A stretch of DNA of 64,000 nucleotides from Marsupella aquatica (GCA_973895155.1 OZ316894.1:23000709-23064708), one strand, 5' to 3'. Positions 10,966-32,835 are shown, numbered from the stretch's first letter. Made by a program: numbers and translations. The notes: generated by a model not told the origin, from the sequence alone.

Positions 10966-13144
10966 TTGAGGGAAGGCCAGGCTTTTTGTGAGGCAACGAC
11001 TTTACATGGAGATCCAAGAACGAAAGATGTTGAGGGAGGTGCAGGTCATTGGGTTGCTTCTCCAGCTCCACCGTCGCTTGCTCCATTGGCTACGGGAAGG
11101 CCGCTTGCTTGTGGAGACAATCCAGGCAGGAATTTTTTGAATCAAGATGTCCATTCTGGCCCTGGCGGCACCTCGAATGCTGGACGTTACATCCTTCCTG
11201 GGAACGGGAATCCGGTCAGCAATAAACAAAGTTGGTTTGGATTACGGGCTTCTGGTCCTGAGACGGATGGGTTCTCGCGCTGGGACCCCCCTCGACTTGA
11301 GCCTTTACCAATGGATGTGCTGGAGGACAGATTGAAGGAACCATACGAGAATCACTTTCGGGAGGACATTGGGGACAGAATGGATGCTGATGCAACTAAC
11401 AACGACTCAATTGCGGCTGGGCAACCTTCTCGTCTTTTTAGAGCGGCGCCTGGGTCTGGCCCGGGGTTTGGTGCTTGTGGTGCTCCACCCCTAATTGATC
11501 GCCCTTTTGTTGATCATTGTGCTGATGAGGCGGAAGCCTGCATTCCCATTTTGAGACGCATTGCTGACCTGTCTATTCAGGACTGGCCTTCTAAGCTGCA
11601 CACCACAATTGAGTGGTCCTTGGAGGAGGCCGCTGAGATTGTGAAGGAACTTTTCAACTGCACAATGATGTGTTACTTCACTGATCGACCCCCTTTGCTC
11701 CTGACGTTCAAATTTTGGGTGAACAAGACTTTTGTGGTTGACTTAAAATGGCCGATATCCCAGGTGAAGTTTGTGGGAAAGAACTTTTACATGGTTGTGT
11801 TCAAGGATCCTGCCCACCGCGACTTAGCGCTGGCTGAGGCTCCCTGGTTTCTGGATTGTAAATTTGTATTTACTTTTCCCTGGGACCCTTCCTTCGATAT
11901 CAGAAGTGAATCATACACCCTTCTCCCTGTTTGGATCAAAATCCCCTTCCGTGCTCTTGTTTTGGAGCCGTGCCGCAGGAAACTTGCAGCCTCCCTAGGT
12001 GACATTTTGCATTACATTCAAGGTGATGAATTAAGCTCCTATCCCCACGATCGTGCTTGCATTCTGTGGGACACCCAACGGGAATTGCCACTGAGTGTTG
12101 AAGTGCTGATTAAGACCGAACTCTCTATCTGGCAGCCAGTGATCTTTAAAAATATTCCTTTCCATTGCTTTCATTGCAGCAAGAAAGGCCACTTAGTGAG
12201 AGATTGCCACGCACACAAGGAGGAAGAACCAAAACTTACCAAAAGTCAAGGTGCTGCCGATCCTGCTCCTACTATGGAGACTGCCCCCCCTCTAAATGTC
12301 CCCTCGCCGGTGAACGTGATTCCCTCGTTGGACCCGACTTTGATACCTCCTGATGAGAAGTAACTCACTGTCGATCACCACTGTGTTACATGGGGCTACC
12401 AATGATGCCCTGCCTAACGAACCTGCGATCACTGAAAGTTTACTTTTTGGAAGCTCCAGGAATCCTGATGTTGACCCTTATCCGATCGTTACAAGTCGTG
12501 AAATTGAGGAGGCCTCCACTGGTGCTGCCCGGTGCGACCCTTCGTCACTATTACTTTCTTACAACGCCGACTTCCCCAAGATCATACAGGATCTTCAGGA
12601 GGTCCAATTTGACTCTATAATTCAACCGGGACCCCAATTCTTGAACTCTCTCCCTGCCTTGAATGCGAAGTCTGCCGCAACCGTTCCTGTCCCTCAATTG
12701 CCGCTGATGATTGTCGAAGTTGAATCTGAGGAACTTATTGCTGTTGAGGATGATATTTTGGCCTCTGACATTCCCTCCAACATGGACCTATCACAATACG
12801 AGGGCATCATCTCTCGCTCTGCCATCAAGAAAGAACGAGCTAGGAAGCTGGCAAGGCGCTCCCCTCCCGAAGATAAAAAGAAGGACAAGGGTAAGAAAAA
12901 GGCCAGGAAGCAAAGATCCTTACAATTCACTTCGGATTCTAAATTGCAGGATGCGGCTGGGTGGGTGACATCGGAGAGGCGCTTATCACGTGAACTTCAG
13001 ATGCCTTCGACTATGACTCCCGATGAAATCAATGATACTTTGGCGATTTCGGCCGACCCTCATGCTGAGATTACAAGTAACCCTCTTCCGAGTCCAGCCC
13101 TGCCGATGCTGGAACCTGCTAAGTCACCGCTTACCCCTGTGTAG
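10966..13144 (+). pseudogene. L1 ORF1 (DUF4283-like region plus CCHC zinc knuckle), one frameshift
   Basis: NFYMVVF...APWFLD..FVFTFPWDPSF...LPVWIKIP and CFHCSKKGHLVRDC. Frameshift near 12355. Confidence 0.85.
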
Positions 13145-13186
13145 TTGATCTGGTTTTGCTCCCTCTGAGATGTGATATCACGGAGC

Positions 13187-16100
13187 ATGAGAATTTTCCA
13201 TTTTTCCTCATGGAATGTTTGCGGACTATGTAATCCGGTTTGTAAGCATGCTGTTCTTAGGTGGGCTTCCTCTTTGCGCCCACCTCTTGATGCTCTGGCT
13301 TTACAGAAGATCAAGGCTGATGGATTCAGATTGGATAGTGCTCTACGTACTATTCTACCCTCCTTGCAACACTTTTGTTCTCCCCCTGATGATGGCCGCG
13401 GCGGGACGGCTCTTCTCATTCACCCCTCTTTCAAGGTTACAACATCTGGCGTTCTTGACGGAGGAAGAGCGATTTGGATTCAGATTGAACATGATGTGGG
13501 GAATTTTGGACTGGTTAGCCTTTATGCACCCAATTCGGCTGGAGAAAGATTGCTGTTATGGAACAACTTGTTGAATGTCCTGCCTCAGGACCGCTGGATA
13601 ATTTGTGGTGACTTCAACATGACTGAGAGAAGCGAAGATTCTATTGGAGTATCCCCTCTCATCTGCGGCCGTGAGTTGGAATTTTGGCGCTTTCTCAAAA
13701 CTAAGTTTGACCTGCTAGACGCTATCTCCATCCTGGGCCAGGCTACTGGTGCGTCCTTTACTTGGCGCAGAGTTCGCAATGGTAGACTGTCCCAATCAAG
13801 ACTTGACCGCTTCTACTTCAGCGAGGCTGGCTGCTGGACCTCTGAGATTGTCGAGCTTAAACATGATGGAACATCAGCACTTTCTGATCACGACCCTGTA
13901 CTGATTACCTTTCGTCTTAATCCCTCACCTATGATTGACTCCAACAGGAGAAACGACCCTGTACTGATTACCTTTCGTCTTAATCCCTCACCTATGATTG
14001 ACTCCAACAGGAGAAGAGCGACCTACTTTAAGGCGAACCCCTTGGTACTTCAGAAGTCTGGAAATTTGGAATTATTGGCAGCTGCGTGGAAGGGGGAAGG
14101 AGCTGCTTTGACGGACCCGCATCTTCGTTTTGCTGGGGCTTTTCAAAGATTTTGGAAATGCTACATGGAGCTTCAATCTCTGCCTGTGCCTTGCGAAGAA
14201 GAATTGGCACTCCTGAAGAACAAACTTCGCCTCCTTAAAATTGCTATCATGGATGAGTACTCTCTGGGAGCTGTCCAGGATTTTTCCTTCACAGATAATT
14301 GCGTTCGCGAGCTAGAGCTTGAAGATGCACACTACTACCGGCGTCTTTCCCGAATCAACTGGCTTGGTTAGGGGGAAGAACCTTCTAAGTTCTATTTCTC
14401 ATTGGTCAAGGCAAAGCAAGTGAGAGAGACGATGGAATGCCTAATTGGAGAGGATGGCAAAGAAATTAGGGATGAAAATATGATTATCAAGGAGGTTCAG
14501 ACATTCTGTGAATCACTGTACTCTCCACCTGAACGAAGTGCTGTGGAACTTATGGAGATGAGATCTGCTCGTCGGAGGCTTTGCGAACACACTCATTTCT
14601 CCCCGTCTGCCACTGAGAACAGAAATCTAGATATGTTACCTACCTTATAGGAGGTACATGATACTCTGCTCATGCTACCCAATGACAAGGCGCCTGGAGT
14701 GGATGGTATAACCGCCGAGGTCTTGAGGGCCTCTTGGGATTTTGTGAAAGCTGATTTCTATGATATGATCTGTGCCTTTTGGAGGACTGGTCATATTTCT
14801 TATGGCATCAAGGATGGAGTGATCCGCTTTATCCCCAAAAAGACTGACAAGCGGCATCTGAGCGACTAGAGGCCGCTGACGATGCTTACCATTACCTACA
14901 AGATTTTGGCTAAGCTGCTTGCTCGACGACTGATGGTGCTGCTGCCCCGTATGATTAGTCCACAGCAGACCGGTTTCATTCCCGGTCGACACATTTTGGA
15001 GAATATCTCGCTTACTTGGTTGGCAAGCGACTGGATTGAATATACGCAGACCCCATCTCTCTTTTTGCAACTTGACTTTGAGAAAGCTTTTGATAGGGTC
15101 GACCATCTCTACATCTGGGAGACTATGAACCTTCTAGGTCTTAGTTCACATTTCATTCTCTTGGTACGGTCCCTCTTAAGCAACTCTTGCTCTAAAGTTC
15201 TCATCAACGGTCTTTGGTCTGCTGATATTCACATGTGCAGAGGAGTCCGGCAGGGGTGCCCCCTCTCCCCACTTCTATTTGCTATCTCTACTCAGCCCCT
15301 AATGGATTTCTGCCAAGCGGAGATTGTTGCTGGTCCTTTGCAGGGACTCAAAATCTCCCCTTCCTTCACCCTCTGTTTTAGGTTGTTTGCTGACAATCTG
15401 GGCCTCTTTATCCCTGCTGATGTGATAGCTTTTGAGCAAGCCAGAAGCACTATTACCTGCTATGAGTGTGCTACGGGTGCTAAACTCAACCTGGCTAAAT
15501 CAACCATCATTCCCCTGGCACTTGAAGAGATCCCTGGCTGGCTACAGGACACTGGCTGTACAATCAGCCCTGCTGGCACTGTGCAGAGATATTTGGGTGG
15601 ACCTTTTGGATCAATCTTATTGAGAAGCAACTACATTGCTTTTGCTTAGGCCGGATTAGTGCACGTCTTGCATCCTGGTCCACTCGCTTTCTTTCCTTCA
15701 CAGGTCGTCTACTGTTAATCAAGCATGTGCTTCAGGCCATCCCGGTCTATCACATGATGTTCCTACTCTCTCCCGCTGCTTTGACTAAAAAGCTGATTGC
15801 TTTAAACACAATTTTTCTGTGGGGTTCGAACCCGTTGGGTGGAAGACGCATCCCACTTGTGGCTTGGGATAAGATGACTCGACCCAAATCTGACGGTGGA
15901 CTTGGCCTAAAGGACTTCAAGAGTCACTCTGATGCCCTTCTGTGTAAGTGGTTTACTGGCGCTTTGGACCATCCTGAATCTGAATGGGCTTGCATGTTCG
16001 CGGAAAACCTTCGACTTACCAAATGGCGGAACTACAAGGCTATACGTCGAAGCTCTTACTCTATGGCTGACAAGTTGCTACTCTGTACCCCTTGTAGCTT

Positions 16101-17230
16101 TGGGAGACTTACGTATACGAATCAGTTGTGGAGTGCCTGGGAGAGAATGAGATCAAATTTGATTTTCTGTCCTACTGAGGCTGATCATATCCCTGGCCAC
16201 TGGGGATTTGAGGATACTATCCACTGTCTACAAGGATTCTACAATTTACCTGAGATCGATATTGTGCTGCTAACAAGAACATTTGGTTCTCTGGGTATCA
16301 GGAGAATTCGGGACTTCTGGTCTACAATTGATGGCACTTGGAAAAATGTTGAATTACGTCTACCTCGTCTGAGAGGCCTTACGCTTCCCAACAGGACTTT
16401 ATGCCTCTCTCTTGCTGGTGTGATTCGTGGCTCTCCCTGTGAGGGAGATGCTACTGCTACTGCTTCTCGTACCTGCATGTGGCGCTGGTTGGATCGGGTG
16501 GAGAGAATGAATTGTTTTGACTTAACAAATGCACGTGCTTATGAGTTGCTTCGCCCAAAAGGCACTGACTCCGCCCGGCTGGACCGGATCTAGGGGGAAA
16601 ATTTACCGGATGAGGATTGGAATAGAGTGTGGAACACTGTGTGGGCTTCTGACCTCTCTACCCGTGCTAAGGTCTTTCTGTGGCGGATTATTGCGCAAGG
16701 CTTGTTCTCTGGCTCCCGTGCTCTACGGATTGGCAAGTCGGATGGCTGCTGTGGCTTATGTGCTGGGACGATTGAAACTATTCCTCACATTTTCTTTTCA
16801 TGCCATCATGCTTGTTGCTGTTGGCGGGAGGTCCACGGATGGATGGAGGGTGCACTCTACGATGGATCACCAAGTTTATTCACTCTGATTTTTTCCGCTG
16901 CAGGGAAACTGCCTATTCACTCTCTTCGGATTTACACGGTTTACCAGATCCTGTGGTGCATTTGGCTAGCCCGTAATGCTCAAACTTTTGACAAAACTCG
17001 TCACAGAATCTTTGATCAATTGCATCATCTCTGAGATTTTGGACCACTTGAATGCGGTTATCACATCCACTTTGGTGCTATCTACCTCTCTGTTAAGCCG
17101 CAAACATCGACGCCTCTCAGGTGCTAAGGGACTGATAGAGACAAAATGCATCAGCATTCTCAGGAGTGGGGTTAGGAGGATTGAATCCATCCTGGATGGC
17201 GGTGTTGCAGGAGGACACCCGGCGCTTTGA
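13187..17230 (+). pseudogene. L1 ORF2 (AP endonuclease, reverse transcriptase, zf-RVT), inactivated
   Basis: SWNVCGL, GDFN, SRLDRFY, SDHDPV; KAPGVDG, QTGFIPGR, LDFEKAFDRV, GVRQGCPLSPLLF, LFADN (YADD motif mutated); ETIPHIFFSC. Several TAG stops and frameshifts. Confidence 0.93.
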
Positions 17231-19799
17231 TCCTTTTTAGGCCACAGAAGCTCTTAGTTAATGGTTTACTTAGCTGCCTTTGTGTCCTTGATCATAGGCC
17301 TACTTTATATCTTTAGGATTAGGAATTTTCGCTCTTATGCCTGCCCTTGATCTTATTACGGCATTCCGAGCTGCTTGACTACCCCCCCTTTTTTTACCCT
17401 TGCAGGCTTGGTTGACTGATGAGCCTTAGGACCATACTCCTGACAAGACATCCGTCCCCTTGCACTGGCACTATTTTGATTCTGCTTTACTCTTGAGTTG
17501 ATTAGATACAACTGTCTGAGTGCCAGTGAAAACTTGATTCTTACTAGTTTTCAACATCTGTGGGATCTGATGTCCTTGACTTTCTTGGACTCTTATGTGT
17601 CCTATCACTCTTTTGCCCTTTGTGGCTTCTGCTGCCGTTTGGCCTGCTGGTTCCCCCCGTCCGTGGGGTTCACGCGGAATAAAATAAAAAATAAAAAAAT
17701 AAAAAAATATTGCCTCCAACTTTTCTAGTGTTGTCTAGGCAATTAGATTGCTTTTGAGAAAACTACCCTTCTTAAAAGTGAGCACTATTAAACCCCGATA
17801 GGGGGGAGCTAGGCGGAGCTACGGGTACTGAGGGAGCTGAGTGTGAGGGTTGGTTACAATGGCCGTGGGCCTGCCGTGGGCTATGGTAGAAAAAAATGTG
17901 CGGAACCGAGCTCCTGCTGTGCCCTTGAACCGGCATTTTGCAATAGCTCATTCCCTGAAGCTTTCAATGGGGAAGTTCTGCAATACCAAAGTTGAGAGCG
18001 GAGGTCACTGTGGACTGACATTCAGGCCTGGGTCAAGCAAGGAGGTTGGAGTTGAAGCCGCCTATGCTTGACCTTCTCTATTTTCTCTCCCTGCCACTGC
18101 CTCTATTGTTGCTTATCATTTCCGAAGCCATTTGCTGCATGATTTTAGGTGTTCACGTGAGAGAGACCTTGAGGTCGGAGCTACAGCCAGTTGGAGGTGG
18201 TCACAATTTCCTACTAATAATCACATCCTGGGTTAGTTTTTTGCATCTCAAAGCTGTCTATCTTTTGCGCTTCTGGCCATGCTGCCTCTTCTGCCAGTGC
18301 ATGAGTCATCTTGAGGAATTGTGTATCATTTCTTCTCAGGAGGCACAAAATGAGCTTTGTACCATGGTTTCCCAAATTTCTAGCTTGTTGGGTCCATCTA
18401 GTTGCACCATACATGTAGTTGTGTCATACAGCTTTTGCATAATGTGGGAATCCATATTTTCACAGTGCTTGCTCTTGGAAACTGGGAGCCAAGAGTTTGG
18501 AGCCGGGAGCTGAGACTAAGACTTGTGACTGATTTTGGGCTCTATGATGCATGTTTCCTACTTGCAAATGAAGATTGGGGACCACTACATTGCAGAGTGC
18601 GACCTTGGAGCTACCCGTGCAGCTCCGAGTATTTGGTGCTGCATTGCTCCACCCACTAGCGGAGGCCAGGACAGTCACTACTTGCATTTCTTTGAAGCAC
18701 TTGGCACTGAAGTCTACGTGGGAGGAATGCACGGCTTCGTGACGCTGGTGGCCCCCCATTGACATTTGTGAGCAACTCCACTATGACTCGTTGAATTTTA
18801 TTTCTGTCTTTTGTGTCATTGCGCTGCATTGGTAGAATCTTTCTCTGCATACACAGTATATATAGCTCCCAGTCTTGCTCTTATGTACCGCTAGGGTGTG
18901 CCGGGCATAGACTTTGTTGCATTTTGCGGTGGGAAATCTGAGCTAGTAGTTGTGCAAAGGGGATTGTTGAGCTGAAAGGCCATCAGAATTTTTTTTGGTT
19001 GCCCCGGGTAAGTGACTGAGGTCGATCAGTTCAGTTGTTAAGTGCCCTCATGTTCCGCGACCATCTTCTTCATTCACCTTAGAGGGTAAGGTGCGGCTCC
19101 ATCATACCAAACACTTCTCGCCGTCCCAAACTGCGAAAGGCTTCTCCCATTCTCTTTGGTGCAGACGTCTCTGTGGAATGCAATGCCCTGTATGCCAGAG
19201 TTTTCATCTATTGGCATGTTAATATTTGCTCTTGGAATGATCTCGAAAGCTCCATGAGCAGTTTATGTTGAGAATTCTGTTTATGTTGTTGTTTCCGTCA
19301 TATGCAACTTGCATTTTTGAATATATGTCCTGTCATTGATGATAGAGGGTGGTTGAGATCGGTTTTCTTTCTTCTTGGTAGTGGGTTAGTGTGTTCCCAT
19401 CATGCGCCCTCCATCTAGCGCCAAAAATGTGGTGCTTCCCATGGCTCCCCAAACCCAAGAAAACTCCCTTGCTCAAGCCGATTCCCGCAGGTTTCATCCT
19501 TGGCGAGGTCATTTTTGAGGCTTAGCGGCATGGGACGCTGCTAATTCTCCTTCTACTACTATTAACATTTTACACACATATACTGGACAGATCTTTCATC
19601 GGGTCATGAGATACTTAGTCGGCCTATTCTAGGCCTTCCCTTGTATTCCTCTCCTGGTCTTCCATTAGGTATGTTTGGATTCTGTCGCCGGAATGATCCC
19701 CAATTGGCTTGGTTAAGCCGCTAAGACCTCTCTCAGCTCGACACATCCAACTCTCACTCCCTTGTTACTTCCCTTCATTGATGTGGGCACTCTTCACAC

Positions 19800-22700
19800 A
19801 AGTTAATGCGACACACAAATAGCAAAATGATTCCTTCTGACTGAGTTATACCATGCACTTGCCATACAAACAGTACATCTCATACACAAGCTCTGCGAAC
19901 TAAGTCGTGAGGCCAACTCTATTTAGTTCTTAGGCATGAGGAAACATAAATATACACAAGGGTCACTGTATAACTAACCGAGAGCTTCTCTTACTACTTG
20001 ATCCCAGTCTTGCTGGTGCAACTAAAAACTTGCTAAAAAAGAGGCCCTGAACTCCCCGCAGCCTAGGTACTTATCCTGGTTGTGGATCCGCCTGATTCCT
20101 TGCAGCGTAAGCCTAATCTACTTATCTGTAATCTACCTACCTATAATCTACCTATGTACAGCAAGGCAGGAGCACAAGTGTCGCCCTTACTCGTGGATCC
20201 ACAATCCCACTAATCTAAGTATCAGGGCCGTCTTCTGGTCTTGATCCTAATCCTAAACTTGGAGATCTGAGCTCGCCCTGCCCACTCACGCCTCCTACCT
20301 CCATGTCCGCCCTTCCTAAAAGGAACGGCGCCCTTGCACCGTCACGACACTGGTGGCGGATCCTCAATGGACGTCCCCAACGCTTCCCCCGCAGCCACTG
20401 CCGACGGTCCGTCCTCTGACAGATTACCTGCCCCAGACCGAGTCAACTGTCCATCGGCTTGACTGGGTCCACCCTTGGCTTTGGCCTCAGCATCGGTCAC
20501 GGCCTTCGATACGGCTTCGGCCTCCCCGACATGTTCTAGTGGAGGATTCGATACCTCGGACTCATCAATAGCTGTCCCGGCCTCGGCCCTGCCATCTCCA
20601 CCTTCTTCAACAGGTGGATCTACTGCCGTGACCATGCCGGAAGTTGGTGCCAGATTGACCTCTTGGGTCACAACGGCTTGGTAAGACGTATAACTCCCAG
20701 ACCCAGAAGGTTTTCGCTTCTTCTTCTTCCCTGTTTCGGTAGCTGGTCCCTTCCCTTTGCTACCTACCTCCGGCACCGGGGCTTGTGTCTCGGCTTGTCC
20801 TTCGGCCAGTACCCCTCCTGGTAACGGAGTTCCCACAATTGGATTTGGACTAGATGAAGCCAAGCATTAAAATACTGCGGCTTGTTTCTTTAGCCGCTCC
20901 GTTTGGTTGTCGGCCCGCCGCTGTAGGTTCTCCATCTTCCTCGTGATTTCCTCCAACTCCTCCTGGGTCTCGTCCAGGTCCTTGCACGCCTCCTCCAGCT
21001 CCTTTTTGGTTTCCTCCAATTCTTTCTTTAAGGTAGCCCTCTCCTCCTGGGTTGCTCTTAGCTCCTTGTCGAGCTCTGCTACGACCTCAGACTCCATCTT
21101 ATTCATCTTGGCATAAGTCCGGTCGAGCTGGTCGTCTTTCTCACGGAGGTCGGCCTTGAAGCTGGCCTTCAAGGACGCAAGCTCCTGCTGCAGCACAATA
21201 ATCCCTTGATAGGATTTCCCTAACTCGGCCTCCTTTTGCTCAAGGGCTCCGCGGATATCCTCGAGTTCCCCCTTTAATGCCCTCTCCCTTCTCTGGTTCT
21301 CCGCCATGGCCCGATTGTTGGTTGCTAAGTGGGCCTCCTCTACATCCCTTAGCTCCCGCTTCCATTTCTCTTTTTCCTTGACTGCGCCGGCCAACTCTCC
21401 TTGGGTCCGAGTCAGTTTATCTTTGATAATCTGATTGTCAGACTGAGCGGTATCCAACTGCCCCTGCATGATGTTTAGCTCATGTCGCTTGATCCGCAAG
21501 TCATCTTGGGCTTTCCTGGCCACCTGCAGGACTTCCACCTCGGCTTCCTTCTCCCTAAGCCGTCGGATGACCTCGTCCTTCTTGCTTCTCTCCAAAGCCA
21601 CCGCTTCTTCTAATCGGTGCTTCTCCAACCTCTCCCTCTAGTAGAAAGGTCCCTGCTCCAACTCCTCCCCAAAGATGTTGAGCGCCAGGTCCCCACACAT
21701 CTCCCCGTACTCCATGGCTCTATCTTTAGCATAGGTGGAGTAAGTAGAAGTCATCGGCATCAACCACCTCGGCCTCTGTTCCCAAGCTGCCTTGCGGATT
21801 TCTTCTACGGTGGCAAGAGGGTTGCTTCTTTTTTTGGCAAGCCGCCTGATGTCCTCTGGCCAATCTCCTCCCGGTAAATCTTTCTCCCTAGCCAAGGCTG
21901 CCCTCTCTTCCTCCGTGAGTCGCTCTTGAAAATCTTGTGCCGTCTGCTTTATGCCGTCAAAGCTCGGGGGAGCAACCTCGGGTGGGGGAGACTCGGGGCT
22001 ACTCTGCTGGGTGGGGTCCCCTCGAACTACTCTTGGAAGCGTGGGGATAAATCGGCCATAGGTCCTTACCGCAACATGATGATCCAACCCATAGCCGGAG
22101 TTATCATTGCTGTAGTCCTCCACCGCCTCCTCCACTGCTTGGACTCCCTGCTTCCCCCTCTGTTCCCCTGGTCCTGCCGTGAAAATGGCCTCACAGACCA
22201 CGGGCTCTTGTTCCTCCTCTGGGTTCCAGGCTATCCTCTCCCTCTGCTCTTCGTGGGAAGGAGCCTTAGGCTGCTCTGCCTTCGATTCGGGGCTTGAGGC
22301 TCCCACATACATTTGCACTCCCGGCTTGTGTTCCGGCCTCCTTCTCTCCTTGGCTCCGGTAAAGGGGTTTTCCCTCCTGAGTCGGCTTAGGCCGGCCTTT
22401 GGGGCAGTGTCCTGTACCGGTGCCGTTGCCGTTGCTGGTGCCGTTCTCTCCTTCTCCAGCATTTTCAGCAGATTTTGCATGCCTGATTGCTGCATCGGCA
22501 AGTCTTCTTTCCTTGGCCGAAACACCTGCTCGATCGTAGGACTGGCAGGCTGGTTGGGCTCTTCTATTGCCGGCCTCTGCTCTGGAACCTCCTCCGGTGC
22601 CCTTGCCGATAGGGGAAGTACTGGGGCAAAGATTTGACTTCTGGCATACTGGCACAACAGCGGCATGTGATAGCCAAGCCAAGACACGCTTCCCACGCCG

Positions 22701-24159
22701 ATCACCTGCTGTTCCTCCTTCAAGATCTTCTTCAGTTGGTTGAGGAGGTACCCGTTGTAATCCTGGCTTGGGTCTGGCCTTTCTGCCAGGTAGACCTGAG
22801 CCTTGCCGATCTCTGCCCTTGGCAAGTTACAATGCATGGTCACCCGCAAGAAATCGATCATCTCTCCGATGTGCGGGTTGGTGCAGTATTCCGGAAGAAG
22901 CCATTCTTCGTTGATGGTCCTGGGAACGACCGGAACTCCTTATCAGGTAAGGTCTTCCTGGTATCAACCTTGGTCTTATTACCCATCGGCTAGCCAAACA
23001 CCTTGGCAATCACCCTAGGAGTGAGATAGAAATCCTTTCCATACACCCTCGTGGAGTTCGTCTTGGGTTCCCATGATCTCACAAATTCTAATAAATCTGA
23101 GTCCGGCACCTTCGGCTTCAGCCATGGTAATCTTACGAAGGCTTCCAAGCCAGATTCGGCCATGAAGCCCTGGTACTTCTTGGTCTGCATGGCCGTAAAG
23201 CATGCATCCTCCTCCCGTGCAAAATGTAATTGCACTTCCTCTGGTAGGATCGCCGCCCAGCCTTTCCAGGTGTCATCCTGTGTTGGAATGGCATTGATGG
23301 GATCGACCTCCTCCTCTTCGGCTTCTCCCTACCTCCTGTTTTGCTGCTCTACTGGCTTCCTTGGTGCCGCCGACCTTGTTCTTTTTGCCGGGGTGGCCTC
23401 TTCGTTGTTGTTTCCTTTCCTCTTCATCTCGGCTGCCGTGGATGTTTCTCCTAGCACAGTTGCCTCCATCCACCCCTCCGTGCTACCCTTCAACTCCCAG
23501 TGCGCGTCATTGCAGCGGTTGATGGCTTCTCAAATGCCGACGATTTTGTCTTCGCAAAACAGAAGGTCATCAAGCTAATTGGCAGTAGGAGTCCATAAGA
23601 ACTTGGCCTTAATGAATTCTCCTCCTAAGAAGGCAAACTTCTGCAGCTCCCACACTCGAGCGAGCTCTTGCCATTCTCGAGCTGCTCTCTCCAATTCTTC
23701 ATCCTTGTAAGTCCTAACGTACTCAGTTGCCCGTTCGAACAGGCATCCCCAAAAATGTGCTGCTTGATTGACGTTGCTCATACCCTCCTTGAGTCGATCG
23801 TTGGTATCTGCTCCAGCCCAGAGTGCTTGCCTAAGCAACTGATAGTAGTTAGCCTTCCGTAGTTGTCTGCCCAGTTCGTGCTTGCAAATGAGCCACCATT
23901 CCTTGCGAGCGGTCCTTACCCCTCTCCTCCTCTGGTCTTTCCTCCCGTTGGTTACCCCTAGCCGCCGATGCTTAGCGCGCCCTAACCCTAATCGTGTTAT
24001 CTCCCCCGACGTCCTTTCTTCCAGTCTCGGCCCGGGTTCCATAGTCACCCTTAATTGTTTATATTTTCCTTGTCTTGTTACTATACTAAGGTGTTTCCAG
24101 GGTACACCCCTGCTTTTACCATGTAAACCGGCCTAGTGATTCCTGGCTAGGCATCACAC
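19800..24159 (-). mobile_element. Unclassified 4.36-kb insertion bounded by a TCACAC direct repeat (possibly LTR-retrotransposon derived)
   Basis: TCACAC at 19794-19799 and 24154-24159. GC-richer than flanks. Terminal hairpin GCCTAG-N10-CTAGGC at 24131-24152. One long minus-strand ORF. Confidence 0.65.
20342..24048 (-). pseudogene. ~1200-aa ORF with a plant-transposon accessory-type domain and a long coiled coil; several stops and one frameshift
   Basis: ORFs 23575-24048 and 22990-23235 share a frame; 21638-22861, 20867-21628 and 20342-20863 share a second frame; frameshift near 22890. LEFVRSW...VYGKDFYLTPRVIAKVFG resembles retrotransposon accessory-ORF domains. Heptad E/K/L-rich coiled coil at 20867-21628. 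Confidence 0.7.
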
Positions 24160-24713
24160 CTTTTCTTGAAAGATCCTTAATGTGAACACAGTCTATACTT
24201 TGATTATGAGTATGACTGAGTGCTGCAATTTGCTTCATGTTGCATCCACTCTTTAGTTTCCAACTATTTTATGGACGAGTTTCATGCCAGTCTGCCTACA
24301 CTCCTGCTCATTCACTCTTGCAAGCCCGCTTGCAAGCTCTATTTTGAATCCTACTCTGAATTTTCTGCTACTAAGATGTCTTCTTTTGAATAGCATACAC
24401 CAGAAGTAAGCAATAGTGGAGGTTGTACTGCACATCAACACATCCAGTGAACTACCTCTCTGCTGCTCACTGTAGGGTGAGACTTTCACTCTTTCTGGAT
24501 ATTGTAGTTTGTAAGCAAGTTGATTAGGAGTGTTTCATGCTATGTTTATACTGTGACCCCTAGCTGGAACCAATGGAATGACACAGTGAGTGGGAACTGA
24601 TAATTTAAGGTTGGTTGCTGTTGGTGAGGCAAGTACAGCTCCTGCTCACCTTGCTGATCGAAGGTGCTTATCAGAGGACGTGAACACACGTCATCTCCAC
24701 AAAAGCAACACTT

Positions 24714-25820
24714 ATGGTGAGGACCCGCAACGCTGAACATGTGCGGCTTGCACGCAAGGCAGAGATGTTGCGCCTTGAGTATGTTAGACTTGGGATCCTT
24801 CCAGCCCAGTCTGCATGGTATTTTGAGTACCCTGTTGTTGCCAGGAACAACTACAGCCGGCCTGTACCTGCCTCTCCACCACTCCCAACATCCTTGGTAA
24901 TTTTGTCTCTCATACATGACCCGCCACAAATTAGGGCCCAAGGGTGTGTGCATAGTTGCCAATATGACTGTCCTACCTCTAGGAAACGTACAAAGGTTGA
25001 CAACCCGCTTCTGTTGGCTGGAATCAAAGCCATTTTGATTCCTGGCCACTATGGGTTCACCCAAGTGAGTTGGCCAATCGTACAAAAATGATTCTCAGAG
25101 TTCCATGGGACTAAAGTCAAGGATATCACTCCACAGACTACACATGTTATTGCGGGGACATGGTTGGATGTGATGAACAAGTGGTCATGGTCCTTCATTG
25201 ATTCTGCCATTACCAACCAAGGTCTAAAAGTGGTTGAAGTCTCTTGGTTGACTGATTCTGTTAAACATAGGTGTGTACAGAGTACTGAGCAATATGAGTT
25301 GTGGGAGAGTGAGGAGGCCACTGCAGAGGCTTTGGCTGAAAAGGAAGCCTATGAAGCAGCGGCAGAGAAACCCAACTTTGCTTTTGTCCAAAATGGACCT
25401 GTTGTCAACATAGGACACCATCCTATGCGTGCAGATGCTATATTGAATGAGCATGGCAACGAGAGAAATACCATTATGAAGGGGTTCAGTGTGGTATTTG
25501 CAGAAGAGGGAATTGGGGAGACTAAGTGCAGACTGTACAAGTCCATAGTTGTTGAGCTAGGTGGGACAGTGGAGGAGAGTCTAACAGAAACCTCTACTCA
25601 TGTTGTAGGTCTGTCATACATGAAAATATGCAGAAAATTCTTTAAGACAATAGTGCATCATTTTGTCATGAACAACAATCTTTGGGTGCTTTCCCCTGAT
25701 TGGCTTCTGGAATCAGCAGCGAGAGGGAAGCGACAGAATGCTTGGGACTTTGATATTTTTGAGGCCTGGCCCTCCAAGATTCAGCGGAGATGTATGCTTA
25801 GCAATGGTGGGAGAGAGTGA
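24714..25820 (+). pseudogene. Intronless tandem-BRCT-domain gene carried by the CACTA; one in-frame stop (25089-25091)
   Basis: BRCT1: FHGTKVKDITPQTTHVI...LKVVEVSWLTDSVKHRCVQSTEQY. BRCT2: LGGTVEESLTETSTHVV...VLSPDWLLESAARGKRQNAWDF. ORFs 24714-25091 and 25164-25820 are in frame. Confidence 0.8.
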
Positions 25821-25996
25821 GGAGTAGGAGTCCCTCATATTTTTGTATAAATCACAATTTTGTAATAAATGTGATGCTTGAACTAACTCATCTTGTCATG
25901 GCTGGTCGCAGTTGAAGTGATTGTTGTTTCCTATTGCGTGGGGTGTGACTGTGAATCTACTTGCTGGGCTCTATTTGGCTGAAGACTTTGGTGGGT

Positions 25997-26518
25997 ATGC
26001 TGCCTCTTCCAGACCGGCAAGCCCTATGTAGGGTCCTCCTACGGGTTGCATCGTGCATGGCTATTGCTTGGGCTTACATGTGTGGATTGGTAACCAGACA
26101 AAGTGTAGCTCCATCCGAGATAATGCCTGCAGACCTTGGATGTGTTGTGAATGAGGATGCACAGTCCGAAGAGGACATTTACTTTTCAGCAGATGAGTTA
26201 GACAAGCACAATGCTGTAGGTGGTTCCTTGTTGCCTGATTTGGCAGATCATATAGTTCTTACACATGTCTGGCCAAGGGTTCTTGTGGTGTCTGGCGCAC
26301 AAGATATCTGCAAATATAGACTAATTAGTACCTAGTGGAGGGACTTGGTAGCAACATGTGCACCGTGGAGGGCATTGCTGCCACTGCTTGTAGGCACGGA
26401 TCGAAGACCACCATGGCATGAGCAGGGTTTAGACCTTGATGACTTAATGTACATGCTTGAGTACCTCAGGGCTGAGTGGCATCGACAACAGGATTGGTAT
26501 CCGTATTTGATGTGGTAG
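25997..26518 (+). pseudogene. F-box-like gene carried by the CACTA; one premature stop
   Basis: SLLPDLADHIVLTHVWPRV...ICKYRLIST*WRDLV fits the F-box pattern LP.d....I..rl...l..Vs+.W+.l; reading continues in frame after TAG 26333-26335. Confidence 0.6.
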
Positions 26519-29500
26519 TAAGATGAGGACATCTCACACCGGTCTCACACCTGGCACCTGTGTCTATGACTATACATGACTGGACTTTGATATGGTCCTG
26601 GATGTACGTGCAGAGGCAGTACATGTGAGGATAGTGGAGGAGTTGACACCCTCAAACATTTAGGAATTTTGTCTCATTCACTTGAGAATAGGTACATGAC
26701 TCAGGCACCTATTTTTTTGTTGTTTTGCTTTCTTGGAATGTTATGCTACATCTTTTGGCAAGTACAGTTGGGGGTGAAATCCTTAATAGGGAGTGTATTT
26801 TTCACTTGCATAATAAAATGACAGGGCGTTGAGTGCGTGTCTATAGTGATGGCTCCAAGGTTGCCTCTTCACAACCCATTTAGGATTAGGCATCATGATT
26901 CTAAATTGTGGATGCGTGAACAAGCCCGGGCTGCCCAAGGTAGGAGTAGGAGGATGAGATGCCCATGCACACAGTGCCAAGGATTCAAGTCATTGAGTTT
27001 GAACACTATGCACCTTCACCTGCTGCGGGATGAAAGGCACCCTCGGTGGAGGGTTTGGAATGTACCAGCAGAAGAAGACTTCTCTGATGAAGAGTGGAGA
27101 GCTGACTTTGTGGATTCTAATACAGCTAGGCATAGAGACTACGTAGAGCAGGACATAGATGGTGCAGAGGATGGTCCTGGGGTACAACATGAGAACGTGG
27201 ATGACCAAGATGGAGATGCAGAGGCAGTCACTGAGGACGGTGGGATGGATGTCCCAAGAATGGTTCAAGAGATTTTTGAAGACCTTGATGCTTTTTACGA
27301 CATAGTGGAATCAGAAGAGGACAATGAACCGCAGCCACACATTGGACACGGCCCACCTGAACCTGACTTTGACATTGGGGAAGGTGCAGCAGAGAGGGAG
27401 TGGGTGTTTGGGGGCCCAAAACACATCAAAGAAGCTTGCATTCCTATCTACGAGGGTCAAACTGCTCCAAGCTGGGTTTTGTGGTGTTGTTGTTGAACAT
27501 CTGTGGCAATCACAATGTTCCCAATATATTTGTGACAGAGTTGTTGACCTTCCTGCGCCGAAATGTGTTACCAGATGGTAATTCAATTCCAAAAAATATG
27601 TACGAGGCTAGGAAATGATCTCTAACCTTGGGCTGAATTATGTGTCTATTGACGCATGCCCTAATGGGTGTGTTCTGTTTCGCAAAGAGCATGCAGATAA
27701 ATTGACATGCCCTCATTGTGGTAAGCACATGTACAAGAATGTAGGGAAATGTACACACCCTGCCAAGGTTCTTCGTCATTTTCCTCTCATTCCTAGACTA
27801 CAACGTCTATTTAGATGCCCTGCCATTTCCAAGCTGATGACATGGACTCCTAATAACAAGAGCAGTGATGGCCTGCAGCGTCACATTGGAGATTCTAACC
27901 ATTGGAAATTTGTTGATGAGAGGTGGCCACGGTTTGCTGTAGAGAAGCAAAACTTTCAATTTGGTCTATCACTGGATGGAGTAAACCCATTTGGAGACAA
28001 AAACAACCGTTATTCATGTTGGCGGTTACGCTGCTAAATTACAACCTTCCCCCATGGATGACTACAAAGAGGTTTTTTGTGATGATGGTGCTGCTAATCC
28101 TTGGACCAGCTTCTGTGACCGAGAAATTCATAGATATCATGTTGGCTCCAGCAGTGGAAGAGTGGAAGACTCTGTGGATAGAAGGGGTGTTAACCCATGA
28201 TGTTCTGAAGGGGCTTCTTCGACCCAGCCCCTTTAGACTGCATGCAATTTGTTTGCTGGATATAGCAGATTACCCAGGCCATGGCATCATATCTGGACGA
28301 GTGACAAAGGGCTATGTGGGGTGCACACCATGTGGGAAAAATGTGACAAGTGAGTGGTTGCATGCCCTGCACAGTATGAAATTTCAGGGGCATAGAAGGT
28401 ATCTGCCTGCTGATCATCCTTACAGGCACACACGGTCTCAAATTGCACACTTCAACAACTGTGGACCGGCTCAATATAGGGTATGTAAGGAACTTGTCAA
28501 TTTTTTTGTTGTTTGTACAAGGAATAGTAAGAAAGTTGTTGTAGTGTTAGCAAAGTACTTAGGGTTTGCAACCCTAAGTCACTAGGGAAGGCTAGTAGGA
28601 AATCATGGAAGGGAGAAAATGTGTTGTTCTAAGCAAATGTAAAGGGATAAGTAATGTGATTTTGGTAGGCAGCAAATGTTCCACCCTTAGTTAGGATAGG
28701 CGACTAAGTCGGGACCGGAAAATGACCCAACACCTGACATCTTATTTTTGGCTGATATTTCTCCCATGGGTGCTGGGAGGTACCTAGGGAACCCTGAAAA
28801 AGTATGAAGTCAAGTGGGGTCTCAACCTAGGAGTTGTGAGTATTTTGACAGAAATTAAAATAACCAACTAGCGGGCCCTGGAGAAAATAGCCAACGGGTA
28901 AATTTTGTGGGTTCGAGGTTAGAATTGAGTTTAGTATAGACCATAATATCCCTGGATTGTCTCAGAAATAATTTGTCACCTTTTGTTACTTTTTGGGAAC
29001 ACCTCAAAGATTGGGAATACTAATGCGCTTTAATAGATATGGTCAAACTTATGTATTTTTAGAAAAGTCGTTATGGAGTGTTTAGAGAGTTTGATAAATT
29101 TAGGAGTGAGTCCCATGTCCAAGAATTCCAGAAATGTGCTCAGAAGTACGTTTGGAAATTTGAGTGAATTATGGCATGGCCTTCAAGAGGGGCCAGTATA
29201 ACTGTTTCTCCTGAGAGGAAAACGAATTTTTCTAAGTGTCAAAACGTGTCGACGCGGCTGCGACCAGACTAGCACGAGGTCAGGCAAGCACGACATGGGC
29301 AGGAATGCACGAGGTGGGCTAATTGAAGGGCTGGTGCTCATCAAAATAGGCCACTCTTGATCTGAATAGGCAGGTGCGGGATTGAATTGAGCTAGCTGCT
29401 GCTGAGAAGGACTTGACCCAGCTGCTACTGTGAAATTGAATTGAGCTATGGCTGCTGATTGGAATAGGGAGGCTGGTTTTGAATTGGGAAGGTTGCTTGC

Positions 29501-29584
29501 TGCTATGGCAGCGGCACAATAGATTAGAGGTGCTGCTATTAATCAGGCATGAGATGCTCACGAGAATTGGCTGGCTGTTGCCTT

Positions 29585-29645
29585 GATGCTGCTGAATTGA
29601 TGGATGCTGCTGAATTGATGGATGCTGCTGAATTGATGGATGCTG
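29585..29645. repeat. 18-bp tandem repeat (GATGCTGCTGAATTGATG) x3 inside the solo LTR
   Basis: Directly visible. Confidence 0.85.
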
Positions 29646-30400
29646 CAGCTAGCTGCGAAATTGCAGAGGTGGGCAGCTATGAAATTGAGAAGAGAGACCT
29701 GCTTGGCTAAGTGATTGGAATAGAGCTAGTTGTTGAGAAGGAATCAAGCTATGGCTGCTGCTGCTGTGCTTCGAATCAGCTGCTATGCTTCGAATCTATT
29801 GCTGTGCTGTTGTGTTGCAAGCTGCGAATTGGTGGGCTATGGCTGCTGAAAAATTCTGCTGCGATTTTGAATTACTTGCAAGGCTGGATGGCTATGGAGG
29901 TGGACTGAGAAGGGTGCTGTAGACCTGGCTGAGCTATCAATTGACCTGCTGTCATTCGATCCAATAGAGAATGCTGTCGTTTCAGATTGAATTCAAGAGA
30001 TAGGAAAATGCTGCAAAAATTGGTGTCCTTATCAATCTTCTTCATAAGAAACGTGAGTATAATGAGAGTACTCTCCCCTCATGACACGTGGAATCCCCAT
30101 AAGGGGCGTGTAAGGTTCAAGTGTAATTGGGTCGCCGCTTACATCCGCTTTACACCAAAAATAGGCCTTGGAAGAATGGACATAACTTTGGCTAGGGGTA
30201 TCCGTTGGGGCCCAAATTTTTTTGTGCTGAGTTAGGGGAAGGTAAGGCACCCCTTGGTGAAGGTGGAAACCCAGAAAAATAATCACTCAAATATATTTTT
30301 AGCGGAGGCCACGAGGGGGTCCCCATAGCTTGCAAACGAGAGTCGGCATGGGGGAAGTAAGACCAGGTTTTTAGGTCGACAATTCTTGCACCCGTGTCAC

Positions 30401-32835
30401 TGTCACGCGATTGGCATGGGTCTTAACACCAAAAACGTCACTATGGGTGCCAAAACCATCTCCTTGTACCTGAGGATCACGAAGGGATGTTGTGAAGGCC
30501 GGTAAACACCAATTTATGCCCTTAACACCAGACTATCATAGCAAGACTCTATCACACATCACCCAAGCTCAATCCCAAGGAACCAAGGTTGGGGATCAGA
30601 TCTGCGCTCATGATAGTTCTGGTGAGAAGGGGTCTTCATATCGGGCCCGTACCCACAGGGCCTAGCGCTACGGTGCGCATAGGTCTATACGTATGCTTAC
30701 TGTCATAGGTATGTTTCTATTCCGCCGCCGGAATGTACCCATAAACCAGTGACTCCTGACTGATTCCCGGCTTAGGGACTTCTAAGCCATTGCCCCACCA
30801 CTCTGCCATTCCACTCTCAATAATCAGAGCTATGACAGTCCTCACCCAGCCCGCTTCAATGTACCCTGTACACCTCTCAGTGGCGTTGCTAGTCCCATCA
30901 TACACTCAGATTGCCTCACACACACACACATCCATGAGAGAAATGAGGCCTGAGAGGAAAACTCAATTAGATTCAAAGATGTGCACAATAGTTCACTAAG
31001 AACACTTGATCCGAACACTAGGGCCGAAGGCTGTCTCCTCCAGATTGTGACGTGCTTGCCCCGCAAGCCCCATGCTTGCCATGCAAGCTCAATCCTGAAC
31101 CTGAGCCTGGCTCACTCCAGATTGCGACGGCAGATTGGACTCAAACCAATCCCGTACTTGCCTTGCAAACTCAATCCTGAACTCAACCTCCTTCATTGCA
31201 CTTCATTCTTGGGGGCACATGCAGATCTCACACCTCCAATTCAGAATGTCAAGTTACGAATGCACAGTTGACTCGACTTCAAAGCTGATACCAGGCCTAA
31301 CGACGATCTATCCTAGACTGCAATGAGGCCCGGCCTCACGCTTGCCCTGCAAGCTCAGCTCTGGCCATAAATCCCTTAGTGCTCTCTACCAGACAAAGGC
31401 CGGGACTCCCCATGGATCACGTAGCCTTGCCAGACTGAACTATAAATGCTCCTCCTGCTGCCCCTCAATTAGTGTCTCAGCCTCCCCAATGTGCTCACCA
31501 CAAATCACATTGAAATCCTCCCCACAGTTTACAATCACCAATACATCACCTATCACCAAGGCTCTGTATCGGGGGAAAAGAACCCAGTTGTGCTGCCCAT
31601 TAGAAAGAGCCACAATCCAACTCGCAAACCTAGCAACCCATTGCAGTTGTGAAGCTTGGTTGATTACTCCCTGAGTAATAGCACAACCAAGCTCTCCCCA
31701 ACACGCAGCGTCCAAGTCCAGCCTTGCTTGCACAGAGCTCCTCCCTGCTGCTCAGTCTAAGTGAGATCACACAACTGAAGTCCCCCCCCCCTTGCCTCTA
31801 CCGGGGGGCTGCTCTATATACTCTCATACTGAGCCCAAATGGATGGATACTACGCTGTTGGAGCCCCATCCCAGCCCTAACAGAGCCGCCACTATCTCTA
31901 ACTACTGAACCCTAACTCGCAACTTTATTTCTATCTCGAATTGGCTATGTACTTCGGATTTGGCCCTCCTCCATGGTTTTTGCGAGCTTGCGCCTCCTCT
32001 CCCGATTTCTCTATTCAACCATTTGCTGCGTGGATAGCAGCGTTGGAAGCGGCTTGAGCTCCTCTTTCCAACGAGGTTAATTATAGCCGATTTGGTCAAA
32101 TACACAGAGAGTTATGCCCCCACAACCGAGAGGGGGTGCTCACTGCTGCGCTAACCCGAGTTACATAGCTAACCCAAGTTTGGCTAACCTAGCTATCCTA
32201 TCTAACCCGAGTAGAGCTAACCCGTGATCTTGGGTTAGGCTGCTACCCGCTATCCGCTATCCGCTAATCTAGCCTAAGCTGAGCCCAAACCCAAGTTTAT
32301 CTATGCTAACCTGAGCCCGAGTTTAGGCTAACCCAAGTTAAGTCTAACCCGGGATCAAATCAATCCGAATGCGGGTTAAGCCTAAGCTAAAGCTGTGCTT
32401 ACTTGAGCTAAGCTGAAGCCGTGCTTACCTGAGATAAGCTAAAGCCGTGCTTACCTAAGCTAAGCCGTGGCCGAGCTTGGGTTAACCCGAAACTGAAGCC
32501 GAACCCGCTAATTCCGGTCACAAGTTAACCCGTCACACTAATCAGGCCGTATCTTTCTTAATACACCTTCGTTTTCCAAGTGTTTTATATAGATTTTACT
32601 CGCCTTGACCAGATCTTTCCAATGCTCTTTACAGATCCGCATTTGGTGACATATTGAAAGAGATATGGTCACCGACCACCCGCGACATAGCTTTTATTTC
32701 CCTACTCTTAACGCCATGATTGCCCTTATTCTTGCCATCTTGCTAATTGTTATGCGGTATCAATAGCTACTCCTTGCATACAGCAACCTAGTTACTCAGA
32801 TTATAGAATTTAAGGACCATGTCATCGGCGTCACA
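30401..32835. mobile_element. Second solo LTR nested in the first
   Basis: Starts TGTCACGC, ends GGCGTCACA. 5-bp TSD GTCAC (30396-30400 and 32836-32840). CTAACC/GCTAAG-rich repeats at 32150-32500. No coding domains. Confidence 0.88.

Follow-up and report, generated by a model that had tools for sequence, protein, structure and literature searches.

Twin-BRCT and likely F-box genes directly upstream of TnpD in a decayed member of a multicopy CACTA family, with a putative link to repair of excision breaks

The known accessory proteins of plant transposons act on silencing or on the transpososome. CACTA/En-Spm elements encode TnpD and TnpA, and the available parts of PMC8978399 and PMC13547354 describe variants that add Peptidase_C48 (Ulp1-like) or Transposase_24 domains; in these accounts the additions lie within ORF2 or form short 5' fragments. 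Separate, fast-evolving accessory genes that are thought to aid propagation are represented by VANC of VANDAL elements and MURB of MuDR (PMC10398659 and PMC12973397, both in part), and host-derived domains occur inside elements with terminal inverted repeats (TIRs) of the Pack-CACTA and Pack-MULE type (PMC13317346, in part). F-box sequence is also carried by transposons, as in a Drosophila telomeric retrotransposon with fragments of the F-box gene CG12520 (an extract of PMC13534243) and in 1–3 of 1846 MULE clusters (the available portion of PMC12973397, Table S6). These are fragments or isolated Pfam matches in other transposon classes, and the same portions list none for CACTA or together with BRCT.

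We analysed a window of 64,000 nucleotides from Marsupella aquatica, and it contains a decayed member of a multicopy CACTA family, in which a twin-BRCT gene and a probable F-box gene stand immediately 5' of TnpD. The element resembles described CACTA/En-Spm elements in its CACTA termini, TnpD domain order, putative downstream TnpA-like gene and extra coding capacity; in contrast to them, whole, separately framed BRCT and F-box-like ORFs stand before TnpD and are conserved across diverged families. The cassette is comparable to VANC and MURB as a set of separate accessory genes, but those belong to the MULE superfamily and have other folds, and their link to anti-silencing is not carried over to the BRCT/F-box cassette. 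As in Pack-CACTA and Pack-MULE elements, domains of probable host origin lie inside a TIR element, whereas here there is no close donor among the sequences searched, the ORFs are whole, the copy number is high, the core is of the autonomous type and there are signs of long-term selection. No description of a CACTA cassette of BRCT plus F-box was found in the literature. The features of the element are as follows.

8344–8377, plus strand: CACTA terminal inverted repeat at the inferred left end, preceded by CGT
10175–17722, plus strand: nested L1-type LINE (DUF4283, endonuclease, RT, zf-RVT), target duplication of at least 14 bp, outside the cassette
19442–24153, minus strand (ORFs): nested high-copy TG..CA insertion, target-site duplication TCCCA/TCACA with one mismatch; depth drops after 24200
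24714–24971, plus strand: short unknown ORF, fused in frame with the BRCT ORF here, likely separate in other copies
24972–25820, plus strand: twin-BRCT gene of ~282 codons with a premature TGA at 25089 and domains at ~25005–25300 and ~25467–25770, Pol lambda-type by sequence
25997–26520, plus strand: F-box-like gene of 174 codons with a premature TAG at 26333 and its motif at ~26234–26370
26849–36110, plus strand: TnpD transposase gene (Transpos_assoc, Transposase_21, DUF4218, DUF4216), frameshifted, with two inferred introns, split by the LTR-type insertion
28460–34074, no strand given: nested LTR-type insertion, TG..CA, perfect 5-bp target-site duplication ACAAC, inside TnpD
36380–39560 (approximate), plus strand: frames of a decayed TnpA-like gene, resembling ORFs of a neighbouring CACTA element at 1216–1271
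40395–48351, no strand given: nested second CACTA element, TTT target duplication
49340–49369, minus strand: CACTA terminal inverted repeat at the inferred right end, followed by AGT

Both termini begin with CACTA, and 26 of 30 bases are identical between the ends at 8344 and 49369. The sequence-only reading had described the element as TIR-defined; the two ends form a putative pair. The flanking triplets CGT/AGT agree at two of three positions of the 3-bp target-site duplication examined in this copy, and four nested insertions lie between the ends. Subterminal repeats are clear for the nested CACTA, which bears a glycogenin-like fragment; for the outer element, no clear motif is common to both ends. 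An internal repeat at 35469–35502 matches the left repeat at 29 of 34 positions, compared with 20 of 34 for an ungapped alignment to 49369; as a right end, 35502 was rejected because TnpD runs on in frame past it and because its flank, ATC, mismatches CGT. The interval 19441–26850 first proposed for the cassette can be kept only in its 24714–26520 part, since it starts with an unrelated 4.7-kb TG..CA insertion whose long ORFs lie on the minus strand. Alternative limits of 19403–24432 for this insertion show a perfect 5-bp duplication, yet chance alone would yield about one such match, and they were rejected because the drop in contig depth after 24200 contradicts them. Pfam profile searches place the four TnpD domains in order and directly 3' of the F-box-like frame, two of the four falling below the Pfam cut-off in this decayed copy, and the TnpA-like gene has a Transposase_24 match at E 0.11 only.

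The assignment of a tandem BRCT protein stands, with PF00533 matched in two stretches (E 1.6e-12) and both domains modelled at pLDDT >90. Intact relatives of 294–295 aa share 61% and 53% identity with the window's protein, distant relatives share 21–38%, and a tryptophan-rich helix in the first domain is conserved and specific to the family. No relative was found in metagenome, viral or prokaryote contigs for BRCT alignment A3, or in viral contigs for alignments A8 and A2. A viral origin of the gene is unsupported, the top BFVD matches being ligase BRCTs (E 1.5e-4 at best). The F-box assignment lies at the margin: the window's frame reaches only E 0.17, and its intact relative P0006 comes close to the Pfam threshold but stays below it (E 0.0011; 19.3 bits against a cut-off of 20.5; 41 of 43 profile positions). 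The top two PDB matches of the F-box-like protein are both F-box proteins (E 0.036 and 0.27), its Atlas F-box clusters score 0.91, 0.87 and 0.86 with a recognition value just below the tool's threshold, and a relative of 170 aa at 50% identity is intact.

Three plus-strand ORFs had been placed before TnpD. Two of them, the BRCT and F-box frames, are separated by 176 bp (BRCT stop to F-box ATG) and followed by 328 bp (F-box stop to the TnpD ATG at 26849), but the third, the unknown ORF, is in this copy unclosed and fused to the BRCT ORF. Both frames are intronless as described, aligning with intact relatives with no intron-sized gaps, and each contains a single premature stop, TGA at 25089 and TAG at 26333. 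The further claim that they are less decayed than TnpD is not upheld by the counts (2 lesions in 1373 nt versus 6–9 in 3405 nt; binomial P 0.73–1.0).

In public runs BRCT and F-box occur at the same contig depth as TnpD, so both genes extend beyond a single copy. Summed contig depth, which is not equivalent to copy number, is 95,000–284,000 in every bin of 24506–28600 in run X1, compared with 1,000–3,000 at 17400–19269. Single contigs of run X3 have depths of 1767 (BRCT, 25155–25575), 1772 (spacer and F-box start), 1919, 2006 and 1817 (into TnpD), and the last three overlap successively from within the F-box frame on into TnpD. Among the listed contigs, none reaches from BRCT to TnpD and none bridges the BRCT stop with 31 bases on each side. 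These similar X3 depths mark one homogeneous family. Run X5 gave depths of 55 (BRCT), 43 (F-box) and 62 and 59 (TnpD), and most of the depth of runs X1, X3 and X5 carries CGA in place of the BRCT stop at 25089. Cover was low in runs X7 (26 of 30 cassette bins) and X9 (16 of 30, with most of the BRCT frame lacking cover). No RNA run is among those listed for the sequence, which speaks neither for nor against expression. The linkage of BRCT and F-box to TnpD was shown for the window's family only. Among the best 80 of at least 432 confirmed metagenome CACTA TnpD loci, none had a BRCT or F-box match, a weak negative because these loci are distant, none exceeding 53% against the TnpD piece of the window, and just 7 extend 3 kb or more upstream.

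The BRCT and F-box frames are very probably element-owned genes under purifying selection. They had been set apart from Pack-type scraps in the sequence-only reading, and this view gains from their depth parity with TnpD, the contigs that run into TnpD, the intact majority allele at 25089, the intact diverged relatives and a shared CpG depletion. None of the three outcomes that the reading had named as counting against it was observed (a single copy, best matches to single-copy host genes with neutral dN/dS, failing domain calls). Three-way invariance extends to 94 of 201 columns in the BRCT domains versus 15 of 53 in the linker (P 0.019), and 30 of 47 positions of the F-box motif are identical versus 13 of 48 just upstream. 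The CpG observed/expected ratio is 0.24–0.37 in the cassette and 0.23–0.31 in TnpD/TnpA; it is higher elsewhere, at 0.44 and 0.57 in the two longer 5' segments and 0.43–0.63 in inserts and host genes. If the frames were instead passive Pack-CACTA cargo, captured once, amplified with the element and functionless, they would fit with the common capture of genes in the 5' part of CACTA elements (PMC8978399, in part) and with the glycogenin-like fragment of the nested CACTA, and the searched database, composed of intact ORFs only, is biased towards intact relatives. We regard this as unlikely: no close named host donor occurs among the sequences searched, which do not cover the host's own genome; the best matches outside the family are single domains at E 2e-7 or worse; whole BRCT-family ORFs of 260–320 aa stay open at 21–61% identity; and conservation is concentrated in the domains, with CpG depletion like that of TnpD. 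There is a very slight chance that the cassette is part of another mobile unit that merely abuts TnpD, the repeat at 8344 not being the end of the family; the fall in contig depth to a few percent left of ~24400, the imperfect target duplication and the closer match of the left repeat to 35469–35502 would suit such an arrangement. However, the X3 contig of depth 1817 connects the spacer with TnpD and overlaps equally deep contigs within the F-box frame, the stretch between cassette and TnpD shows neither a terminal repeat nor a target duplication, and variable 5' regions would explain the depth drop.

The nearest outside domain is Pol X-labelled (polymerase-lambda-type) for 22 of 29 family domains, a label carried by only 7 of 29 candidates, and by this measure the twin BRCT is probably a captured N-terminal BRCT of Pol lambda, doubled early and without its polymerase. 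Four of the seven labels (P0142, P0152, P0156 and P0157) rest on similarity, with no polymerase domain in these records. Pol X catalytic domains are present in P0160 and P0161, and human Pol lambda is the sole PDB match of P0159. Under an HMM of the family's domains, Pol X-type BRCTs rank ahead of REV1-, BARD1-, TopBP1- and PAXIP1-like ones, and hhalign gave E 6.8e-11 to P0161, 3.6e-12 to Mesotaenium P0142 and 1.4e-7 to TopBP1-like P0163. When the Pol X HMMs were restricted to animal and fungal sequences, Pol X was the preferred match for 15 of 29 domains and TopBP1 for 10, the margins being small. In structure comparison, Pol lambda ranks 23rd (Z 10.8), behind PARP4 (16.2) and XRCC1 (13.8); many BRCTs score like or above Pol lambda in the fold search of the twin-BRCT model, and the domain tree is largely without resolution. 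The element protein resembles the N-terminal BRCT of Pol lambda (PDB 2jw5, 9g9l) in that a basic N-terminus leads directly into the BRCT and phosphopeptide pocket marks are absent, but differs from it in having two copies, no polymerase or lyase domain and mostly changed Ku-contact residues. No Pfam match to Pol X catalytic domains occurs in the window's ORF or in family members. The Ku-contact triad (R57, L60 and F61 of human Pol lambda, scored as R/K, L/I/V/M and F/W/Y) is present in 4 of 28 family domains, compared with 5 of 7 domains labelled Pol X; of the two BRCTs in the window, the second has it (K, L, Y) and the first lacks it, and an aromatic residue at position 61 is kept in 10 of 11 second domains.

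Cut-and-paste elements gain copies only if the template that repairs the donor break still holds the element. Our best explanation overall, to which we give slightly less than even confidence, is a CACTA family with a captured Pol lambda BRCT serving as an enzyme-less decoy of end joining at excision breaks, together with a likely F-box protein. The twin-BRCT protein would occupy the Ku or XRCC4–Lig4 site that recruits Pol lambda, so that gap-filling end joining would be hampered at the donor site; sister-chromatid repair would then be favoured, restoring the element and raising its copy number. This putative course of events, from site occupancy to higher copy number, is as a whole possible rather than probable. 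The available part of PMC12056208 reports that Ku recruits the human Pol lambda BRCT to breaks even when this domain is isolated, and that Pol lambda without catalytic activity has a dominant-negative effect only as long as its BRCT engages Ku. For Arabidopsis, PMC4444747 (in part, citing other papers) states that the Pol lambda BRCT binds Lig4 and XRCC4 and that Pol lambda is active at transposon excision sites. No precedent for a transposon-encoded NHEJ decoy was found in the literature. The F-box-like protein may bind SKP1, and a role as small adaptor or decoy of SCF ligases is proposed because it has almost no C-terminal domain. That the cassette steers repair of excision breaks, as suggested at the outset, is a reasonable inference for a putative function; the companion suggestion, that the F-box protein degrades host factors, appears weaker, because only ~45 residues follow the motif and these have no Pfam match to a substrate-binding domain (LRR, Kelch, FBA, WD40). 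More tentatively, an old CACTA lineage of non-seed plants may have stolen and doubled the recruiting domain of Pol lambda and, with an F-box-only partner, may putatively redirect the repair of excision breaks.

Other functions have been considered for the same genes. Phosphopeptide-binding tandem BRCTs pack head-to-tail across a short linker and are marked by the phosphate pocket motifs S/T-G and R/K-T-x-K. The twin BRCTs had been read as such a phosphopeptide reader in DNA-damage signalling, with an F-box degrading host repair or silencing factors, and the presence of two BRCT folds in one chain, the multi-BRCT checkpoint proteins (Rad4/TopBP1, Rtt107) at the top of the Foldseek and PDB-profile matches and the TopBP1 HMM as the best for 10 of 29 domains would agree with this. 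In sequence and model, however, they do not look like readers of the BRCA1/MDC1 type: the model is unpacked, with a long helix and a disordered linker of ~50 residues between the domains (pTM 0.48), all two-domain matches lie at rmsd 15–19 Å from tandem structures, and the pocket motifs, both of which were found in BARD1- and PAXIP1-like controls, occur in 1 of 29 (S/T-G) and 0 of 29 (R/K-T-x-K) family domains. The F-box-like protein also has no recognised substrate-binding domain, and this reading is very improbable. A doubtful but real prospect is that the BRCTs are element-owned and conserved yet repurposed, as an interaction scaffold for TnpD/TnpA or for a factor of chromatin or silencing, and take no part in end joining. 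All of the evidence for ownership and selection applies equally to it, the Ku-contact residues are mostly lost while the tryptophan-rich helix is conserved, and accessory transposon proteins evolve fast and gain host contacts (PMC13547354, in part). Against the repurposed function, no analysis that we ran indicates a partner, the aromatic residue at position 61 is retained in nearly all second domains, and the window's copy keeps the full triad. Against the end-joining decoy stand the retention of Ku-contact residues in so few domains and a fold search that does not single out Pol lambda.

Even without a decoy mechanism, the twin-BRCT proteins represent an unannotated family linked to the core of a CACTA element, in a plant lineage that has been little sampled. 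If the decoy reading is true, steering of host repair choice by a transposon would be directly testable with one small gene, and that gene would also give plant genome editing a natural candidate for modulating end joining.

For the short first ORF (ATG 24714), no Pfam profile scores below E 0.35. A separate ATG at ~24972 is seen in loose ends of runs X2 and X5, and X2 also has an in-frame TAG 18 nt upstream; therefore, this ORF appears to be separate only in those copies. The peak contig depth of the cassette, in runs X1 and X3, lies at 24706–24907.

The window contains a heavily nested CACTA element. Its putative terminal repeats, the left at 8344 and the right with its end at 49369, share 26 of 30 bases, with the flanking triplets CGT on the left and AGT on the right. 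Without its four nested insertions, the element measures 15.2 kb. Its parts are as follows:

10175-17722, L1-type LINE nested inside the CACTA element, target duplicated
about 19442-24153, TG..CA element nested in the CACTA element, ORFs on the minus strand, a coiled coil as the sole Pfam match
24714-26520, accessory cassette
26849-36110, TnpD, after the cassette
28460-34074, TG..CA element splitting TnpD, perfect ACAAC duplication
after TnpD, decayed TnpA-like gene
40395-48351, second CACTA element, nested, TTT duplication

A sequence-only reading had placed a transposon with three accessory ORFs at 19441-26850. The start of that interval proved to be the edge of the second insertion, whereas the cassette at 24714-26520 does precede TnpD; the twin-BRCT and F-box-like frames also stand, but the unknown ORF is here continuous with the BRCT frame. 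This single frame runs from the ATG at 24714 to 25820, and its final 282 codons match BRCT as originally called (PF00533, E 1.6e-12), aligning end to end with intact proteins of 294-295 aa at 61% and 53% identity. Because these intact relatives begin at the position equivalent to 24972, where an ATG is visible in loose contig ends from two runs, the first 86 codons likely stand as a short ORF of their own in other copies; no family match was found for them. The frame at 25997-26520 is likely an F-box: an Atlas search returned F-box clusters at 0.86-0.91, and its one intact relative, P0006 (50% identity over 97% of the length), has F-box proteins as its top two PDB matches, although the Pfam F-box score of P0006, 19.3 bits, falls below the cut-off of 20.5. 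About 45 residues lie C-terminal to the motif. Each frame has the one stop first described (TGA at 25089, TAG at 26333), but the idea that they are less decayed than TnpD did not hold, with 2 lesions per 1373 nt in the cassette frames versus 6-9 per 3405 nt in TnpD (P 0.73-1.0).

The cassette is very probably owned by the CACTA element and not a one-off, in agreement with the sequence-only reading, as it shares both contig depth (runs X1, X2, X3 and X5) and CpG depletion with TnpD. The region 24200-28500 is partly present in 10 of 12 listed public sequencing runs (8 studies); depth was compared in six as summed contig depth, which is not copy number and covers neither terminal repeat. In X1, this depth was 95,000-284,000 in every bin of 24506-28600 versus 1,000-3,000 at 17400-19269, and X2 showed the same contrast. 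Long contigs of X3 had near-equal depth over the BRCT (1767), the spacer and F-box start (1772), the F-box frame (1919 and 2006) and the spacer into TnpD (1817); X5 repeated this even pattern at 43-62, and X7 and X9 gave only sparse cover. The last three X3 contigs overlap by 30 and 27 bases, joining F-box to TnpD, and no listed contig reaches from BRCT to TnpD. The cassette was found at 0 of 80 distant TnpD loci (the best 80 of 432), a weak negative because most loci are short. The BRCT stop site reads CGA in most depth of X1, X3 and X5; the 40 of 170 majority differences listed do not include the F-box stop. Left of about 24400, depth drops to a few percent, from which we infer that most copies carry a different 5' region. 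CpG values in the cassette (0.24-0.37) are on par with those of TnpD/TnpA (0.23-0.31), versus 0.43-0.63 in two longer 5' segments, inserts and host genes; the 247-bp piece directly upstream of the cassette is low as well (0.22). The cassette is a real, multicopy and apparently selected accessory module in a CACTA core.

When 1.84 billion representatives were searched with a twin-BRCT profile, 38 matched, 12 of them at E 1e-10 or better. Fifteen of the new matches were aligned with the intact relatives P0001 and P0002 and the window frame (18 rows, 21-58% identity); the sources of all 15 are Logan, ENA, JGI and NCBI, and their names go no further than 'hypothetical' or 'BRCT domain'. Full two-domain members are open frames of 264-321 aa. 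In a three-way comparison, invariant columns number 94 of 201 in the BRCT domains versus 15 of 53 in the linker (P 0.019), so that conservation centres on the domains. The twin-BRCT proteins form an old, unannotated family. Short loose contig ends of X3 look like P0001 and P0002, and therefore several diverged versions can occur within one genome.

A structure model from the 18 rows is confident within each of the two domains, with 191 residues reaching pLDDT 90 or more, and not for their relative position (pTM 0.48), since a long helix and disordered residues lie in between. Of 29 family domains (three near-duplicate rows dropped), one has the phosphate-pocket mark S/T-G of phosphopeptide-binding BRCTs and none has the mark R/K-T-x-K. 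Because the modelled domains are unpacked, every structural match spanning both has an rmsd of 15-19 A and the marks are nearly absent, the phosphopeptide binding first suggested is unlikely. The domains probably descend from Pol lambda. On the family domain HMM, two unlabelled single BRCTs and Mesotaenium P0142 score highest among outside proteins (60-69 bits), followed by Pol X-type domains (41-53 bits) and, at 39 bits or less, BARD1-like, REV1, TopBP1 and PAXIP1; the truncated plant-type P0157 reaches 30 bits. P0160 and P0161 contain Pol X catalytic domains, P0159 has human Pol lambda as its sole PDB match, and for P0142 and P0157 the best-scoring HMM is one of Pol X. For 22/29 family domains, the closest outside domain carries a Pol X label (unlabelled P0153 and P0149 omitted). 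Counting against this ancestry, only 15/29 prefer Pol X when the reciprocal test uses HMMs of non-plant Pol X, Pol lambda ranks 23 in the fold comparison and the domain tree is poorly resolved. The single-BRCT proteins P0149 and P0153, top outside scorers on the family HMM, also score best on the Pol X HMM; they are possible undoubled intermediates.

In human cells, the Pol lambda BRCT is reported to dock on Ku via R57, L60 and F61, and dead polymerase to stop gap filling only with this docking intact (PMC12056208). The Arabidopsis Pol lambda BRCT reportedly binds Lig4 and XRCC4, and the enzyme is linked to transposon excision-site repair (PMC4444747, citing Roy 2013 and Huefner 2011). Because the Pol lambda BRCT docks on these partners, a doubled BRCT without the enzyme is, by analogy, a natural candidate for a decoy or tether. 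At the donor break, such a protein would compete for the site that Pol lambda uses and impair end joining; template repair would be favoured and the element restored at the donor site, and the F-box-like protein would be a putative small adaptor or decoy engaging SKP1. This end-joining decoy is our preferred mechanism, held only tentatively. Repurposing as a scaffold comes close to it as an alternative because the Ku-contact triad survives in just 4/28 family domains, although the window's second domain retains it.

No CACTA element with a BRCT and F-box cassette was found in the open literature, as the sequence-only reading had supposed, and no paper there has both 'CACTA' and 'BRCT' as whole words; subscription papers, bioRxiv supplements and transposon databases such as Repbase could contain one. 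Titles and abstract openings on BRCT with transposon accessory genes gave no transposon-borne BRCT. PMC12973397, which surveys 1007 plant genomes, covers accessory proteins of 775 CACTA clusters; the searched rows of its Table S6 include one for RTT107_BRCT_5, with no species stated, which could be a related element, and F-box or F-box-like entries for MULEs only. F-box fragments are reported in a Drosophila retrotransposon (PMC13534243). The texts of PMC13547354, PMC8978399 and PMC13317346, supplements aside, do not mention F-box, and BRCT is absent from the searched text of two.

Of the named relatives among the best 120 of 175 TnpD matches, those of Riccia sorocarpa (53%) and Adiantum (49%) are the most identical; other records reach 58-76%, which makes a non-seed land plant the likely host. 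Within a TnpD exon, 35449-35502 holds a 34-bp terminal-repeat copy that agrees with the left end at 29/34 bases and includes a tandem duplication of 20 bp; the frame goes on beyond this possible self-insertion remnant. The nested CACTA at 40395-48351 has clear subterminal repeats, and no TnpD ORF was seen in it. Its glycogenin-like (GT8) fragment (E 3e-6 to glycogenin-1) occupies a single open frame, 41783-42553, and has the look of usual Pack-CACTA cargo. The very high-copy TG..CA element at 19442-24153 carries a near-continuous minus-strand ORF run (185, 112, 433, 256 and 174 aa) with one long coiled coil, and neither gag nor pol nor any further Pfam identity was found in these ORFs. The low-copy 5' region 18019-19000 has a plus-strand frame that looks decayed and matches none of the 185 proteins compared; a 39-bp repeat (9744-9782/18142-18180) lies either side of the LINE insertion. 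At positions 1-4340, a further CACTA with TnpA-like ORFs is represented by its right part, the last 350 bp being 90% identical to the end of the nested CACTA; next to it, beyond its end, is a fragment of a proteasome alpha subunit (4535-4900). On the minus strand, 50508-61543 holds two tandem ankyrin-repeat/PGG genes, 76-91% alike, with internal 156-bp repeats.
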